This document shows positions 1-4,914 of a stretch of DNA of 4,951 nucleotides, in pieces. The position numbers and the translations under genes were made by a program. Under the pieces are notes generated by a model. The model was not told where the DNA came from. It worked only from the letters and a program-made list of their open reading frames with translations, and searched no databases. The DNA comes from a virus. Lineage: Duplodnaviria; Heunggongvirae; Uroviricota; Caudoviricetes. Location of the stretch: the IMG/VR virus record IMGVR_UViG_2695420650_000004; one strand, given 5' to 3'. How positions within the stretch are numbered: the stretch's first letter is position 1; the number at the start of each line of letters is the position of its first letter.

Positions 1-119
1 ATTAGCTCCTTCTGATGCCATTCTATTTCAGGAAGGAGTGTCCGTTAAACTCAGGCTACCTCAGGTTATTCGCTTCTGGGCATGGGCGGATCAACAAATG
101 ATAGACGGTAATGCAGATT

Positions 120-138
120 GTAACGCTCGCGGCGTTAC
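120..138. promoter_or_regulatory. 19-bp dyad-symmetric site GTAACGC-N5-GCGTTAC (site A), candidate iteron or operator
   Basis: Read directly: GTAACGCTCGCGGCGTTAC, with 7-bp arms that are exact reverse complements. The same arms recur at 329-347. Confidence 0.4.
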
Positions 139-328
139 AAAAAGTGCAATAGATCGCATCACTTTTATGTCTGGTTTTGCTGATGCGTTAATTCAGGTTG
201 GATGGCTGGTCGAAAATGACGGAGGGCTTTCTCTACCTAACTTTGAACGTCATAACGGAAAAAGCTCTAAAAAAAACGGGCGGTTACAAACGAGCGAGTA
301 ACAAAAATACGCGAACTGAAACGAAAAG

Positions 329-347
329 GTAACGCTGCCAGCGTTAC
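329..347. promoter_or_regulatory. 19-bp perfect palindrome GTAACGCTG-C-CAGCGTTAC (site B), candidate iteron or operator
   Basis: Read directly: 9-bp arms that are exact reverse complements. It shares the GTAACGC/GCGTTAC arms with site A, with a further half-site GCGTTAC at 364-370 and a near half-site GCGGTTAC at 280-287. Confidence 0.4.
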
Positions 348-373
348 ACAAACGGATCAAAAAGCGTTACCAG

Positions 374-393
374 AGGAAGAGGAAGAGGAAGAT
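374..393. repeat. Tandem hexamer microsatellite (GAGGAA)x3.3
   Basis: GAGGAAGAGGAAGAGGAAGA read directly; it encodes the EEEEEE(D) acidic linker in frame 1. Confidence 0.7.
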
Positions 394-746
394 CTAAATA
401 CTGATCTCCCCCTCGCCAAAAACGAGCGTCTAAAAAATTCGAGCCGGAGGCTATTGAGCTGCCCGATTGGTTGCCGGAAACACTCTGGCATGAGTGGGTC
501 CGGTTCAGACAGGCATTGCGAAAACCGATTCGAACGGAGCAGGGCGCTAACGGGGCGATACGGGAACTGGAAAAATTCCGTCAGCAGGGTTTTACACCTG
601 AGCAGGTGATTCGACACAGCATCGCCAATGAATACCAGGGCCTGTTCGCGCCGAAAGGTGTTCGGCCTGAGACGTTGCTCCGACAGGTTAACACCGTCTC
701 GTTGCCGGACAGTGCGATCCCGCCAGGCTTCAGGGGGTAACGGACC

Positions 747-1493
747 ATGAAAAATATTGCGACAGGCGGCGTTCTGGAACGCATCCGCCGACTGACCCCG
801 CCACATGTAACCGCCCCATTCAGAACGGTAGCGGAGTGGCGCGAGTGGCAACTTGCTGAAGGCCAGAAACGTAGCGAGGAGATCAACCGCCTGAATCGCC
901 AGTTGCGGGTGGAAAAAATTCTGAATCGCTCAGGCATCCAGCCGTTGCACCGTAAATGCTCGTTTGCGAATTACCAGGTGCAGAACGACGGCCAGCGATA
1001 CGCGTTAAGCCAGGCGAAATCCATCGCCGATGAACTGATGACCGGGTGTACAAATTTTGCGTTCAGCGGAAAACCTGGTACCGGGAAGAATCACTTAGCG
1101 GCAGCTATCGGGAATCGCCTGCTGAAAGACGGTCAGACAGTGATTGTGGTTACCGTGGCTGATGTTATGAGCGCCCTGCACGCCAGCTATGACGACGGGC
1201 AGTCAGGCGAAAAATTTTTGCGGGAGCTGTGCGAAGTGGATCTGCTGGTTCTTGATGAAATTGGCATTCAGCGCGAGACGAAAAACGAGCAGGTGGTGCT
1301 GCACCAGATTGTTGATCGCCGGACAGCGTCGATGCGCAGCGTGGGGATGCTGACAAACCTGAACTATGAGGTGATGAAAACATTGCTCGGCGAGCGGGTG
1401 ATGGATCGCATGGTCATGAACGGCGGGCGCTGGGTGAATTTTAACTGGGAGAGCTGGCGTCCGAATGTTAGCCATTCGAGGGTTGTTAAGTAG
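747..1493 (+). CDS. dnaC: DnaC-like replicative helicase loader (AAA+ ATPase), phage-encoded
   Basis: 248-aa ORF with Walker A GKPGTGKNHLAAAI and DnaC-like motifs along its length (NRSGI, CSF.NY, VDLLV(L/I)DEIG, GMLTN, LGERVMDRM, NW(E/D)S(W/Y)R). ATG 747 lies 6 nt after the upstream stop, with a G-rich ribosome-binding site at 733-737. Confidence 0.9.
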   Translation: MKNIATGGVLERIRRLTPPHVTAPFRTVAEWREWQLAEGQKRSEEINRLNRQLRVEKILNRSGIQPLHRKCSFANYQVQNDGQRYALSQAKSIADELMTGCTNFAFSGKPGTGKNHLAAAIGNRLLKDGQTVIVVTVADVMSALHASYDDGQSGEKFLRELCEVDLLVLDEIGIQRETKNEQVVLHQIVDRRTASMRSVGMLTNLNYEVMKTLLGERVMDRMVMNGGRWVNFNWESWRPNVSHSRVVK

Positions 1494-1507
1494 TTTCAGG
1501 AGGATTT

Positions 1508-1930
1508 ATGGCGAAACCTTTTACTCCCGAACAGCGGGAAGAACTGAAGACGCGAATTGTGGAACTCGTGCATCAGGACGGTCGGGTCACGATTCGGCAG
1601 TTGTCAGATGAAACAGGTATCAGTCGTGCGTCTGTCGGTCGCTTATGCATAGAACTGGTCGCAAGTGGTGATGTATATAATTCTGGCTACGGCTTATTCC
1701 CGTCTGAACAGGCTCGCAAGGACTGGCAAAGCGCCCGCAAAAAACTCTCGAGAGTAAAGGTGAGGAAACCGGTTGTTGTTGATCCGGACCTTATCTGGTC
1801 ATTACCTGACGGAGAAATACGCCGCTACGACAGGCGCCTGAATATAATCTGTCGCGAGTGCCGGAAGAGCGAAGCTATGCAGCGTGTACTGGCTTTCTAT
1901 CAGGGTAATTTTCAGGAGGCGATACTGTGA
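1508..1930 (+). CDS. Hypothetical protein with a predicted N-terminal helix-turn-helix (winged-helix-like), putative DNA-binding
   Basis: 140-aa ORF with ribosome-binding site AGGAGG 1498-1503 before ATG 1508. The N-terminal segment RVTIRQLSDETGISRASVGRLCIELVASGDV looks like a helix-turn-helix, and the C-terminus is basic. Function is not recognised. Confidence 0.75.
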   Translation: MAKPFTPEQREELKTRIVELVHQDGRVTIRQLSDETGISRASVGRLCIELVASGDVYNSGYGLFPSEQARKDWQSARKKLSRVKVRKPVVVDPDLIWSLPDGEIRRYDRRLNIICRECRKSEAMQRVLAFYQGNFQEAIL

Positions 1931-2344
1931 ATGAAATTAGCTATCAGGCTTCAATTACCGCTGGCATTCGCATCAAAGGAGAGGAGCATGGAAATAAAAC
2001 CAGAAGATGAGTTAAGCAATATTGTTTTATTTCCGGTAAAAGAGGATAACCCTCGTAATCAGGTTAATTTTCTTTATGAGCCATCGGAAAGACCATATTG
2101 CCATCACGCCTCTGTACGGGTTGACGAAAAAGAGCGTCAGGTCCGCTGTAAAATCTGCGGTGCGGTTGTGGAGCCGTTTGACTGGATGCTCTCTGTGGCA
2201 AAAAGAGAAACCAGACTGGCAGATGATGTAAGGCTATTGCGCCAGGAGGAACAGGAAAGGCGGAGAAATATAGAAAAGCTGATACAGATTGAGCGTAACG
2301 CGAAAGCGCGGATACGCAGGGCGACAAAATCCAGAACTGAATAA
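1931..2344 (+). CDS. Hypothetical protein with a putative zinc-ribbon-like Cys/His cluster and a charged C-terminal helix
   Basis: ATG 1931 directly follows the upstream TGA (TGAATG), with AGGAGG at 1914-1919. An alternative in-frame start at ATG 1988 has a better-spaced AAGGAG at 1976-1981 and would give 118 aa. The motif is CHH-x16-C-x2-C, followed by an Arg/Glu-rich coiled-coil-like tail. Confidence 0.7.
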   Translation: MKLAIRLQLPLAFASKERSMEIKPEDELSNIVLFPVKEDNPRNQVNFLYEPSERPYCHHASVRVDEKERQVRCKICGAVVEPFDWMLSVAKRETRLADDVRLLRQEEQERRRNIEKLIQIERNAKARIRRATKSRTE

Positions 2345-2379
2345 TTAAATTTAGCACTGTTAAAAATTTAATCCTTAAC

Positions 2380-2430
2380 CGGAGGGATTTCTGCACCCTC
2401 AAATCATCAGGAGACCACCCGAAAGGGCGG
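2380..2430 (+). repeat. Copy 1 of a 51-bp direct repeat forming two hairpins (second stem carries one mismatch)
   Basis: CGGAGGGATTTCTGCACCCTCAAATCATCAGGAGACCACCCGAAAGGGCGG. Hairpin 1 is GAGGG/CCCTC with a 9-nt loop; hairpin 2 is CCACCC-GAAA-GGGCGG with an A/C mismatch. It matches 2536-2586 at 50 of 51 positions. Confidence 0.85.
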
Positions 2431-2513
2431 GGAGCAGTCACACATCTGTTTCCGATAGCCCCGTTCTAATGCTACACTCTTTGATATTTTTATGACCCCA
2501 ATAAACATATTTA

Positions 2514-2535: not shown

Positions 2536-2586
2536 CGGAGGGATTTCTGCACCCTCAAATCATCAGGAGACCGCCCGAAAGGGCGG
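2536..2586 (+). repeat. Copy 2 of the 51-bp direct repeat; hairpin 2 is perfect with a GNRA (GAAA) tetraloop
   Basis: CGGAGGGATTTCTGCACCCTCAAATCATCAGGAGACCGCCCGAAAGGGCGG. Stem 2 is A-CCGCCC-GAAA-GGGCGG-T (7 bp). The repeat ends 6 nt before ATG 2593. The upstream extent is hidden by the N run. Confidence 0.85.
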
Positions 2587-2592
2587 TAATGA

Positions 2593-2811
2593 ATGGTTAC
2601 ATTATTTAGAAAAAAATATCCGCGAAAGAGTAGAACAACAGAATTCCTGTTTCTCATTCTGTTTATCGTGTTGATGACACCGATATCCCCGCTAATTTTT
2701 GTCTGGATAATCGGAAAAATAATTGAGCCAGTTATTGAATTGTATAACGACGTGGTATGGGCGTCATTCAACACACTGCACAATAAAATTAATCCGTATA
2801 AGGAAAGCTGA
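2593..2811 (+). CDS. Putative small membrane protein (72 aa, one predicted transmembrane segment) in an AT-rich segment
   Basis: The ORF has a hydrophobic stretch FLFLILFIVLMTPISPLIFVWIIG. Its TGA at 2809-2811 lies 1 nt before the HNH ATG at 2813. Codon usage is AT-rich with rare AGA and ATA codons, and the ribosome-binding site is weak, so this is a low-confidence call. Confidence 0.35.
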   Translation: MVTLFRKKYPRKSRTTEFLFLILFIVLMTPISPLIFVWIIGKIIEPVIELYNDVVWASFNTLHNKINPYKES

Positions 2812-2812
2812 T

Positions 2813-3178
2813 ATGGCACTGACGAAAAAACAACGTGCAGAACTGCGCATGAAGTTCGGTGGTCGCTGCGCTTATTGCGGCTGCGAACTTGGCGAAAAGT
2901 GGCATGCAGACCATGTAAAACCGGTCATTCGTTTTGATGGAAATATGCTTCACCAGGAACGTGACGATATATCCAACATGGTACCAGCATGCCACCCATG
3001 CAATCTGCACAAGCATTGCAGTAGCCTGGAAGATTATCGACGAATTATCAGTGATGGTCGTCGTGAATTCCTTGCGTCCGGGAAAGGCAAAGCGCTGGTT
3101 CGTATGGGATTGGTTGAAATGAAATCTGACCCGGTTGTGTTCTGGTTTGAAAAATATCAAGAAGGGGCTACGGCATGA
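2813..3178 (+). CDS. HNH endonuclease (small, about 121 aa)
   Basis: Zinc-knuckle and catalytic motifs: CAYCGC ... HADH ... N ... CHPCNLHK. Ribosome-binding site AAGGA at 2800-2804 sits 8 nt before ATG 2813. The longer ORF from 2723 lacks a ribosome-binding site and adds a non-domain N-terminus. Confidence 0.85.
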   Translation: MALTKKQRAELRMKFGGRCAYCGCELGEKWHADHVKPVIRFDGNMLHQERDDISNMVPACHPCNLHKHCSSLEDYRRIISDGRREFLASGKGKALVRMGLVEMKSDPVVFWFEKYQEGATA

Positions 3179-3840
3179 CCACTATTACCAAAGAGCGACT
3201 GCAATGGCTGGCTAACATTTCTGGCCGCGATGATATTGACGATATAGACGGCGGTGAAATTCGTGAACTGGCGCTTATCGCTCTGGCATCACTGGAAGCA
3301 GAGCCTGTAGCGGAATGCATTGTTGAAGATGGGGGCATGTGTATTGACGGGTTCGGTGAGTATGTGGGTCACTCGCTGCCTGATGGAATGCATGAGCTTT
3401 ATGCTGCCCCGCGAATGCGACAACCTGATGGATGGAAAGCCGTAGCTGTAGCGTGGAAGGTGACGTTTACTCAAGTTGACCAGGAATCTAATACGTTCAC
3501 TGCTATATATTTTGACAAAGCGGAAGTTGAGTGTTGGGTACGACTGCATAAAGCATGTGATTTTCGGGCAGATATAACACCGCTTTACGCAGCGCCGGCA
3601 GTGCCGGTTGCAGTAAACGACGACATGGCTTACGCATTCCATCACGCACTGTCAGATTCATCGCTTGGCTCTGATGAAATCGAAGAAATTAAAACCGGTT
3701 TGCGTGCTGCCTTTGCCAACGTCACTATCCAACCAGAGCCGATAGTGCCGGATGAAATCGGGCCAAACGATAGTAATACGTTTGATTATGTTGATGGCTG
3801 GAACGCCTGCCGCGCTGCCATGCTTAAGGGAGATAAATAA
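3175..3840 (+). CDS. Hypothetical prophage protein (221 aa, acidic) with an internal repeated LYAAP motif
   Basis: ATG 3175 overlaps the HNH stop (ATGA), with GAAGGGG at 3161-3167. The LYAAP motif occurs twice (HELYAAPRMRQPDGW and ITPLYAAPAVPVAV). Function is not recognised. Confidence 0.8.
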   Translation: MTTITKERLQWLANISGRDDIDDIDGGEIRELALIALASLEAEPVAECIVEDGGMCIDGFGEYVGHSLPDGMHELYAAPRMRQPDGWKAVAVAWKVTFTQVDQESNTFTAIYFDKAEVECWVRLHKACDFRADITPLYAAPAVPVAVNDDMAYAFHHALSDSSLGSDEIEEIKTGLRAAFANVTIQPEPIVPDEIGPNDSNTFDYVDGWNACRAAMLKGDK

Positions 3841-4205
3841 TGATTAATCGAACCAAACTGGAGCACATTCTCGAATATGCCAGGCAGCAGAAATGTATTG
3901 GGCAACTTTGTAAAATTCCACCAGGAGATATGGTTGAAATCGTGGAAATGGCCATGCGTAAGGCTGGCAACTCTCCGGTAGCTCCGGCTGGCTGGATAAG
4001 CTGTAGTGATGCAGTTCCTGCTGAATATTGCGATGTGATTCTTCTCGATGATCTCGGGAATGTATTCCCCGGTTCCTGGGATAAGGTTTTTTGCCCCACT
4101 CGTGGCGGGAATAAGATGGCTTTTGTGGACAAAGACGGCGTTGAAGTAGAGAGCTCAACTCACTGGATGCCGCTACCGGAACCACCGCAGGAGGTGAATC
4201 AATGA
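3840..4205 (+). CDS. DUF551-like phage protein
   Basis: Start overlaps the upstream stop (TAATG), with ribosome-binding site AAGGGA at 3826-3831. The C-terminus THWMPLPEPP is the hallmark I associate with the DUF551 family common in lambdoid nin regions. Confidence 0.8.
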   Translation: MINRTKLEHILEYARQQKCIGQLCKIPPGDMVEIVEMAMRKAGNSPVAPAGWISCSDAVPAEYCDVILLDDLGNVFPGSWDKVFCPTRGGNKMAFVDKDGVEVESSTHWMPLPEPPQEVNQ

Positions 4206-4285
4206 CCTGGCCTGAGGCATTCACCACGGTAGGAATTGCGATGGCGGTGGCGCTGGTGGTGTATTCGATTTGCCGTTGGGGTTAA
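4202..4285 (+). CDS. Small hydrophobic peptide (27 aa, MTWPEAFTTVGIAMAVALVVYSICRWG), putative single-pass membrane peptide
   Basis: Not in the ORF track because it is too short. A consensus ribosome-binding site AGGAGG at 4189-4194 sits 7 nt before ATG 4202, which overlaps the DUF551 stop (ATGA). It is followed 10 nt later by a strong intrinsic terminator. Confidence 0.5.
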   Translation: MTWPEAFTTVGIAMAVALVVYSICRWG

Positions 4286-4294
4286 CAAACAAAA

Positions 4295-4321
4295 ACCCCG
4301 GATTGATGGTCCGGGGTTTTT
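4295..4321 (+). terminator. Rho-independent terminator closing the HNH/DUF551 operon
   Basis: An 8-bp GC-rich stem ACCCCGGA/TCCGGGGT (4295-4302 and 4310-4317) with a 7-nt loop, followed by TTTT at 4318-4321. An A-run upstream means it could work in both directions. Confidence 0.8.
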
Positions 4322-4455
4322 GAAGGAAACAAAACAGAAACAGCAATTGCCGTTACCTGTTGTTACCATGGCAAGTAAACGTATCTCAGGCGAGCGCATT
4401 GCGCCGTTCTGACGCAGATAAACTAGCCTGGATAGATGGTGCTGGCAATAAAAAA

Positions 4456-4491
4456 TAGCGTTTTCTTATCGGTGTCGGTAAGATTGCTGCG
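4456..4491 (+). promoter_or_regulatory. Putative weak promoter of the hok/mok mRNA
   Basis: -10-like TAAGAT at 4479-4484 with a poor -35. The predicted start near 4491 would give a 5' end GGGUGCUUGAGG, resembling the plasmid R1 hok mRNA 5' end (GGCGCUUGAGG) as I recall it. Confidence 0.4.
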
Positions 4492-4540
4492 GGTGCTTGA
4501 GGCTGTCTGCCTCGGGTATGTCACTGTAAGGCAGACAGAG

Positions 4541-4611
4541 AAAAGCCCCAGTTAACATTACGCGTCCTGCAAGACGCTTAACATTAATCTGAGGCCCAAT
4601 CTATGTCTCAC
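4541..4611 (-). ncRNA. sok: Sok-like antisense RNA (type I antitoxin), predicted
   Basis: A minus-strand promoter is readable as -35 TTGCCT (complement of 4641-4646), a 17-bp spacer, and -10 TAACCT (complement of 4618-4623), which parallels my recollection of the R1 sok promoter. The transcript would be antisense to the mok ribosome-binding site and start codon. A predicted terminator is a 7-bp stem (complement of 4589-4595 paired with 4545-4551, one G-U pair) followed by UUUU. Confidence 0.5.
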
Positions 4612-4815
4612 AAATGTAGGTTAGCCTCTTACGTGCCGAAAGGCAAGGAGAAGCAGGCTATGAAGCAGCAAAAGGCGATGTTAATCGCCCTGATCGTCAT
4701 CTGTTTAACCGTCATTGTGACGGCACTGGTAACGAGGAAAGACCTCTGCGAGGTACGAATCCGAATCGGCCAGACGGAGGTCGCTGTTTTCGTAGACTAC
4801 GAATCTAGAGAGTAA
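4603..4815 (+). CDS. mok: Mok-like reading frame (in-frame N-terminal extension of hok that couples hok translation)
   Basis: ATG 4603 with GAGG at 4591-4594. The 70-aa ORF MSHKCRLASYVPKGKEKQA-MKQQ... has the same architecture as chromosomal MokC/HokC as I recall it. Confidence 0.6.
   Translation: MSHKCRLASYVPKGKEKQAMKQQKAMLIALIVICLTVIVTALVTRKDLCEVRIRIGQTEVAVFVDYESRE
4660..4815 (+). CDS. hok: Hok/Gef family type I toxin (51 aa)
   Basis: MKQQKAMLIALIVICLTVIVTALVTRKDLCEVRIRIGQTEVAVFVDYESRE is near-identical in pattern to HokD/RelF and HokC/Gef. Ribosome-binding site AAGGAG at 4645-4650 precedes ATG 4660. Confidence 0.85.
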   Translation: MKQQKAMLIALIVICLTVIVTALVTRKDLCEVRIRIGQTEVAVFVDYESRE

Positions 4816-4876
4816 GAGTGACCAGGCGGGAGAGTAATCTCCCGCCACCTTTGATGTGTCAGGCATCCTCAACGCA

Positions 4877-4914
4877 CCCGCACTTAACCCGTTTCGGCGG
4901 TTTTTTTGGTAATG
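4877..4914 (+). terminator. Probable 3' end and terminator of the hok mRNA (weak hairpin plus U7)
   Basis: CCGC...GCGG and CCG-TTT-CGG pairings followed by TTTTTTT at 4901-4907. It lies just downstream of the 3' fold-back element GCACCCGC at 4874-4881. Confidence 0.45.

Follow-up and report, generated by a model that had tools for sequence, protein, structure and literature searches.

INTRODUCTION

Among described systems, the closest to the locus analysed here is the ydaU gene of Rac-type prophages. Intact ydaU measures 789 bp and codes for 262 aa (three intact genes were used as our alignment reference), and the related loci share the gene order ydaT, ydaU, ydaV, DUF977. In the matching E. 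coli genomes it is a single 789-bp gene annotated upstream of ydaV, mostly as a 'hypothetical protein', in one case as a 'phage replication initiator YdaU family protein', and in a Rac phage record as ydaU. The host itself carries a dnaT-dnaC pair, in which dnaT lies directly upstream of dnaC.

The second described setting is the decay of Shigella genomes. IS600 is one of the five IS elements that are expanded in all Shigella species (PMC7373316), and in S. sonnei 50% of the pseudogenes have been attributed to IS, while a further 12% carry an IS together with other inactivating mutations (Hawkey et al. 2020, PMC7373316).

In this work, we have analysed a window of 4,951 nucleotides from the IMG/VR virus record IMGVR_UViG_2695420650_000004, in which an initial annotation, made from the sequence alone, had described an initiator gene broken by frame changes. 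Our results show, with a probability that we put at about 95%, that positions 64-740 of this window are a real, multiply inactivated ydaU pseudogene with three independent lesions.

RESULTS

A ydaU gene in three reading frames

The features of the ydaU region are the following.

1..63, minus strand: terminal 63 nt of IS600 (IS3 family); the transposase genes lie beyond the window start, and the reverse complement begins TGAGGTAGCC
64..66, plus strand: GGT target-site duplication of 3 bp, ydaU nt 105-107
64..740, plus strand: ydaU pseudogene remnant, equivalent to ydaU nt 105-789, in three frames and without a start codon
up to the TAA at 299-301, plus strand: open frame 2 segment of ydaU (ORF list and translation)
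269..276, plus strand: A8 tract, which is A6 in 3/3 intact ydaU genes aligned (+2 bp); frame 2 passes to frame 1
271 to the stop at 607-609, plus strand: open frame 1 of ydaU (ORF list and translation)
277..406, plus strand: middle segment of ydaU in frame 1, with a basic region and the acidic linker (translation and alignment)
373..390, plus strand: in-frame hexanucleotide repeat (GAGGAA)x3, encoding the Glu6 acidic linker
405 to the TAA at 738-740, plus strand: open frame 3 of ydaU (ORF list and translation)
407..413, plus strand: TCCCCCT, the lone surviving copy of a 7-bp direct repeat, at the junction of a 10-bp deletion (TCCCCCTAAA); frame 1 passes to frame 3
459..737, plus strand: C-terminal, DnaT-like domain, equivalent to residues 170-262 of intact YdaU, in frame 3; the last residues are VNTVSLPDSAIPPGFRG, with the stop at 738-740
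747..1493, plus strand: ydaV, an intact DnaC-like helicase-loader gene of 248 aa, starting 6 nt after the ydaU stop
1508-1930: DUF977 gene, after ydaV

Alignment to intact ydaU showed that the segments in frames 2, 1 and 3 are three pieces of one gene, and the ORF list and the translations confirmed both the succession of frames (2 to 1 to 3) and the homopolymers given in the initial annotation. When 5,426 complete E. coli genomes were searched with megablast, the region was found in 681 of them at a coverage of >=80%; the best match is 98.2% identical, and the difference amounts essentially to 12 indel positions. After repair of the frame, the translation of the window equals residues 36-262 of WP_038340159.1, with 227/227 residues identical. 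Over its full length (residues 1-262) the intact homolog corresponds to phrog_2509, 'replication initiation protein' (E 1.2e-89), and this match, together with the RefSeq name, bears out the earlier view of the gene as a prophage replication initiator.

Other matches concern parts of the protein. The C-terminal part of YdaU matches phrog_6451, 'primosomal protein' (E 1.7e-39), and residues 77-236 match phrog_678, 'replication initiation O-like' (E 7e-26). In phmmer searches of PDB sequences, residues 170-262 aligned to DnaT 92-179 (2ru8_A, 'Primosomal protein 1', E 9.5e-5) and also matched 9zbt_D, 'Replication restart protein DnaT' (E 3.2e-4), and the YdaU tail VNTVS-PDS-IPPGFRG is nearly identical to the DnaT tail. 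The architecture proposed at first, an N-terminal domain, an acidic linker and a DnaT-like C-terminus, was thus well founded, the C-terminus by the match to 2ru8_A; the linker is a (Glu)6 stretch. A Pfam scan of intact YdaU and of the three window fragments gave no match at E <=0.01, and on YdaU the NCBIfam DnaT equivalog NF002770 reached 16-17 bits, over the last 19 residues only, against a cut-off of 201; for this reason the family assignment rests on PHROGs, RefSeq naming and similarity to PDB sequences. Judged from sequence, YdaU and DnaT share a domain, and YdaU is not a member of the DnaT family.

The remnant resembles the YdaU family in sequence (its repaired translation equals residues 36-262 of the homolog that matches phrog_2509 over the whole length) and in its position, with the DnaC-like ydaV as the next gene of a Rac-like early-right operon, but it lacks an intact ORF, with the start codon missing and two frameshifts. 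We infer that window 64-740 is the phage replication-initiator gene ydaU of a Rac-like lambdoid prophage of the S. sonnei lineage; the lineage is judged by near-identity to other loci, and the initiator role is taken from family annotation and gene order. The gene that follows, ydaV, matches NCBIfam PRK12377 over its full length with 510 bits (cut-off 389), the DnaC equivalog with 1.7e-91, and also Pfam IstB_IS21 and phrog_50, 'DnaC-like helicase loader'.

The layout of the 3΄ end raises the question of whether the fragments could be separate functional genes, for example whether a stand-alone DnaT-like C-terminal protein (405/471-740) could act with YdaV. The C-terminal ORF is placed 6 nt upstream of ydaV, ydaV has been kept intact, and a few public annotations (8 contigs) list an 89-aa C-terminal ORF as a gene. 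The called lengths of this ORF vary widely between annotations, however, and its only listed start is a TTG at 471, within the domain whose alignment to DnaT begins with L170 at 459. Furthermore, the C-terminal fragment does not differ from its counterpart in the intact genes, so it bears no sign of independent evolution. An organisation in separate genes had been named beforehand as what might overturn the idea of a broken gene, but the intact homologs carry one single-frame ydaU gene. Independent function of the fragments is therefore very unlikely, and we treat them below as parts of one pseudogene.

The two small indels

Two 1-bp indels had been proposed. Alignment to the three intact ydaU genes did locate the indels, but their sizes and the site of the second one differ from that proposal. 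The first is an expansion of A6 to A8 (+2 bp). The second is a deletion of 10 bp: where the intact genes read GATC-TCCCCCTAAA-TCCCCCT-CGCC, the window reads GATC-TCCCCCT-CGCC, and the undeleted 17-mer counterpart of window 407-413 is TCCCCCTAAATCCCCCT. This second lesion lies between TCCCCCT direct repeats and not, as had been claimed for both, at a homopolymer; the other homopolymers present are C5 at 408-412, A5 at 418-422 and A6 at 432-437.

The idea that the two changes are of opposite sign and compensate each other also had to be given up. Both +2 and -10 equal -1 modulo 3, so the frame passes from 2 to 1 to 3 and does not return to 2, and the net change in length is -8 bp. After the A8 shift, frame 2 stops at the TAA at 299-301, and because both small indels shift the frame in the same way a full-length product is impossible. 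When the repairs were translated explicitly, removal of two A together with reinsertion of TCCCCCTAAA gave 227 residues and a stop in one ORF, and a +1/+1 repair restored a single ORF as well, whereas the repair suggested originally, one A added and one base removed at C5, A5 or A6, left stops in all three versions.

The GAGGAA repeat of the linker is a hexanucleotide VNTR, with 3 units in the window and 4-7 in other related assemblies (regex counts of n = 2-6 correspond to 3 to 7 units). In the draft L019 it appears as an artefactual runaway array, with dozens of units beside N runs.

A gene split in this manner might still be expressed by recoding, that is, by a first shift on the A8 tract (A AAA AAC), through programmed -1 ribosomal frameshifting or transcriptional slippage, and by another one near TCCCCCT. 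The heptamer A AAA AAC belongs to the classical slippery sequences for -1 shifts, RNA polymerase can slip on runs of 8-9 A, and the length of the tract across assemblies is A8 or A9. Yet the intact homologs are single-frame with A6, and the split is unseen in any complete E. coli genome that fully covers the segment, which argues that the split is derived and not a conserved recoding signal; the homologs do not share a split together with a slippery site. The second shift site has no slippery tract, originates from a deletion and has lost residues too, and in the window the ATG and the first 35 codons are gone. Recoding is thus exceedingly improbable as an explanation of what we see as a derived, inactivating split.

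IS600 insertion

The initial annotation had missed the IS600 end at window 1-63. Homology to ydaU ends at window 63/64, and window 1-66 is present at 100% identity in 3,052 of the 5,426 complete E. coli genomes, with up to 43 copies per genome. Beyond the IS600 end the sequence runs on into part of a transposase gene, and on E. coli plasmids this longer segment bears the annotation 'IS3-like element IS600 family transposase'; Shigella plasmids match it too. The full element is present in the loci L005, L006 and L017, and in L005 and L017 a two-ORF transposase stands beside the junction.

The junctions were compared in L005, in which the left one reads GGGAAGGT/TGAGGTG and the right one CCTCA/GGTTATTCGC, while the intact gene reads GGGAAGGTTATTCGC. 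There is a GGT on both sides of IS600 in L005 as against a single GGT in the intact gene, and the window holds the right-hand copy only. In the loci with a whole IS600, the 5΄ part of ydaU (nt 1-107) is found on the far side of the element, and this arrangement, together with the duplicated GGT, indicates normal transposition into codon 35/36. Terminal identity, contiguous transposase genes and a short target-site duplication all identify the element as IS600. It cuts off ydaU nt 1-104 including the start codon, so it is the insertion at nt 104/105 that leaves the ydaU of the window without one. Given the lost start codon and the two frameshifts, the earlier statement that the prophage, if the changes are real, has no functional initiator is supported.

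A different left flank was observed in the S. sonnei Illumina drafts L009 and L011-L014. To the left of IS600 (~3760-3810), the element abuts the 3΄ end of another ydaV-like gene, and the junction reads CCGAATGT-N-TGAGGTG in place of the 5΄ part of ydaU. Either two Rac-like prophages were rearranged through IS600, or the junction is an artefact of scaffolding (N bases are present).

The lesions in independent assemblies

Faced with the choice between a pseudogene and an error, the initial annotation leaned towards sequencing or assembly error, that is, an intact gene in which two homopolymers were miscalled in a draft. The window does come from a draft with gaps (a run of N at 2514-2535 lies between two copies of a 51-nt sequence); the related draft L019 shows plain artefacts in the neighbouring GAGGAA repeat; and, indels aside, there is no amino-acid change with respect to the intact homolog. 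The nature of the lesions already speaks against this explanation: the first is a change of +2 bp and not of 1 bp, the second is a 10-bp deletion between direct repeats and not a homopolymer miscall, and a bona fide IS600 insertion with target duplication also cuts the gene.

The reality of the lesions was judged by agreement between assemblies of a clonal species. The A8 tract, the 10-bp deletion and the same IS600 junction were found together in 13/13 independently assembled IS600-bearing loci, several of them on multi-megabase contigs, and window 1-2513 is 99.92% identical, without gaps, to several IS600-bearing loci. As a diagnostic product we used the 87-aa ORF at 38-301, which starts in the IS600 end and stops through the A8 shift. 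This ORF is indexed in 481 blocks of a public assembly collection, of which 14 hold contigs >1 Mb, and the exact 87-aa product occurs on 492 contigs under S. sonnei protein names that include FORC11_0721. Its carriers include CP010829, the complete genome of S. sonnei FORC_011, and accessions of this type with the prefix CX are ascribed to the S. sonnei collection of Holt et al. 2012. Every IS600-bearing locus that was fetched, multi-megabase contigs and the complete genome included, was in the same state. Exact-sequence protein look-ups retrieve the A8 state only, so rarer tract lengths are undersampled in these counts; an A9 tract was seen in one assembly (L015, with the deletion) and in the 136-aa partial protein P0002, on 2 contigs, and the 222-aa A9 product of L015 was absent from the collection by exact look-up.

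Among complete E. coli genomes, window 240-445 was covered at >=80% in 666, two records of >=99% being left aside as presumably short partial matches. The two lesions together were absent among the genomes that cover this segment in full, and since identity at full coverage does not exceed 94.5%, no complete E. coli genome appears to carry both; in E. coli the intact gene is the rule. The carriers of A8 and the deletion are S. sonnei-named assemblies outside the complete E. coli genome collection.

Because the lesions recur in hundreds of independent assemblies, they are not a product of sequencing error, and for practical purposes the agreement of many assemblies, multi-megabase contigs among them, rules out assembly error. 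Independent assemblies of the same lineage reproduced the lesions. Of the choice first offered, the pseudogene therefore stands, and an error of the draft, which the 13 loci, the 492 contigs and the FORC_011 genome contradict, deserves hardly any credence.

Two other sequences deserve mention here. L016:4475-5270 (UARW01000010, a 5.3-Mb contig) carries the same ydaU allele with A6 and without the 10-bp deletion, and is split by a different 1-bp frameshift near KKFEP, which may have arisen independently or may be an indel error of that assembly. The protein P0034 (113 aa, S. flexneri, 330 contigs) was considered as an A8-frameshifted YdaU N-terminus and rejected, its sequence being that of a truncated YdaV.

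Palindromes and ydaU alleles

The 19-bp palindrome GTAACGC-N5-GCGTTAC is present in two perfect copies inside ydaU, at 120-138 and 329-347. Its chance expectation is 0.02, and two copies were reached in 0/200 shuffles; positions 363-370 hold a further half-site, AGCGTTAC. The Rac record that is 93% identical conserves the arms of the palindrome but has a different spacer. By analogy with lambda O, these palindromes could be candidate initiator binding sites of an origin embedded in the initiator gene.

At least two types of YdaU N-terminus exist, the DUF1376 type (L009:2176-3033, 285 aa) and that of the window. When L009 is compared with window 483-1468, the DnaT-like C-terminal part and ydaV are ~94% identical at the nt level from ~483 onward. 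This pattern suggests a modular exchange of the presumed origin-specific domain of YdaU.

In E. coli FDAARGOS_944, a second prophage was considered as a carrier of the same lesions and rejected: its allele is of the DUF1376 type, 88.7% identical from window 432 onward, and forms one long ORF. At this place (L031:3044-4243, NZ_CP065613.1 5012043-5013242) RefSeq lists two partial 'YdaU family' pseudogenes. The sequence is one uninterrupted ORF of ~400 aa, composed of a DUF1376 N-terminus, an insert of ~130 aa and a DnaT-like C-terminus, and the insert has a faint restriction-endonuclease-like match (PF18741, E 0.06). Instead of a pseudogene, this ORF may represent an unbroken initiator gene that has acquired an additional domain.

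The remainder of the window

Further features were located beyond DUF977.

2593-4205: small phage gene cassette, including an ORF of 72 aa (DUF4014 in E. coli annotation)
2813-3178: HNH endonuclease
3175-3840: 221-aa protein without a Pfam match
3840-4205: DUF551 gene
4491-4815: hok/sok type I toxin-antitoxin module (Rfam sok RF01794, 118 bits at 4491-4665)
4660-4815: Hok-family ORF, within a longer ORF at 4603-4815 (NCBIfam E 5.7e-14, under the curated cut-off)

The 22-N scaffold gap at 2514-2535 is flanked by a 51-nt direct repeat (2380-2430 and 2536-2586, 98% identical). The part to the left of the gap (1-2513) is matched by the S. sonnei loci at 99.9%, and there a QueH gene follows. The part to the right (2536-4907) is 99.7% identical to a different FDAARGOS_944 prophage, in which the gene order is unchanged except for an inserted ISEc52. 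The two parts may form a genuine mosaic, or scaffolding may have joined them at the repeat.

DISCUSSION

Assemblies that carry part of the lesions allow their order to be considered. The A8-frameshifted product of 113 aa with an intact N-terminus and without IS600 was found on 159 contigs, S. sonnei 53G included; A8 with the deletion and without IS600 was found in eight loci (L020 and L023-L029); and A8 without the deletion was found in L022 only, a single contig that is listed for 2 samples. The likely order of decay is the change from A6 to A8, then the 10-bp deletion and then IS600, although the A8-only intermediate, given by that single contig, could also be an independent slip (homoplasy) or a sequencing error. 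Since there is no amino-acid change apart from the indels, the decay of ydaU is recent.

We propose that the first step would have been replication slippage in the poly(A) tract, which would extend A6 to A8 (+2 bp), and that the second would have been slipped mispairing between the two TCCCCCT repeats, 3 bp apart, with the 10-bp deletion as its outcome; both proposals follow established knowledge of such sequences. In what is probably the third step, IS600 transposed into codon 35/36 with duplication of GGT, so that the 104 nt nearest the promoter, ATG included, were cut off. If lambda O/P and the host dnaT-dnaC pair are taken as models, intact YdaU would bind the phage origin and, by means of the DnaT-like domain at its C-terminus, recruit loader and helicase. 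Many isolates have the lesions in fixed form. The prophage copy is without an initiator of its own, though ydaV is intact, and on the same analogy this copy would be unable to start its own replication. Many further IS elements lie in the surrounding S. sonnei loci, in keeping with a cryptic prophage remnant, and the decay of ydaU agrees with the fast accumulation of IS and pseudogenes reported for S. sonnei (PMC7373316).

Could the decay be other than neutral? It is conceivable that ydaV, and perhaps the DnaT-like fragment, are kept and expressed for the benefit of the host, with A8/A9 and (GAGGAA)n as hypermutable switches and with a retained origin for which the GTAACGC-N5-GCGTTAC palindromes would be the candidate sites; if this were true, expression might come by read-out from IS600. 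We consider the chance that this is so to be slight, and continue to regard the locus as a decayed gene.

What does this locus mean for other genomes? The public S. sonnei proteins of 87 aa and 89 aa that are named 'hypothetical' or 'bacteriophage' all derive from one dead ydaU, for which a single pseudogene entry would be the proper annotation. The locus illustrates a stepwise decay of a Shigella prophage, from a homopolymer slip through a direct-repeat deletion to IS600, and shows that a three-frame pattern in an otherwise unchanged sequence need not mean sequencing error. Candidate lineage markers might be found in the IS600 insertion and in the number of GAGGAA units. The lesion state of ydaU is otherwise an ordinary one, already sequenced in Shigella prophage remnants, and is of little import beyond annotation.

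Compared with the YdaU of Rac-type prophages, the copy in the window is, indels aside, ~98% identical at the nt level and 100% identical in protein after repair, and it occupies the same place upstream of ydaV; unlike the intact genes, the window copy is dead through IS600, +2 bp and -10 bp. The Rac-like YdaU of L009 (285 aa) differs in its DUF1376-type N-terminal domain, the window allele having no Pfam match. E. coli DnaT is alike in its C-terminal domain (PDB 2ru8, 9zbt), which resembles YdaU 170-262, and the placement of ydaU directly upstream of the DnaC-like loader gene ydaV recalls the dnaT-dnaC pair. However, only the C-terminal third of YdaU is alike, its N-terminal domain is unrelated, and DnaT is a restart-primosome protein while YdaU is a phage initiator. 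The λ O/P system is built on a like plan, in which the gene of an initiator with two domains and a flexible linker precedes that of the helicase loader, but the loader encoded in the window is DnaC/IstB-like and not λ P-like. Finally, with respect to the IS and frameshift pseudogenes of Shigella (PMC7373316), the ydaU locus is of the kind in which an IS is combined with other mutations, here in a prophage remnant.
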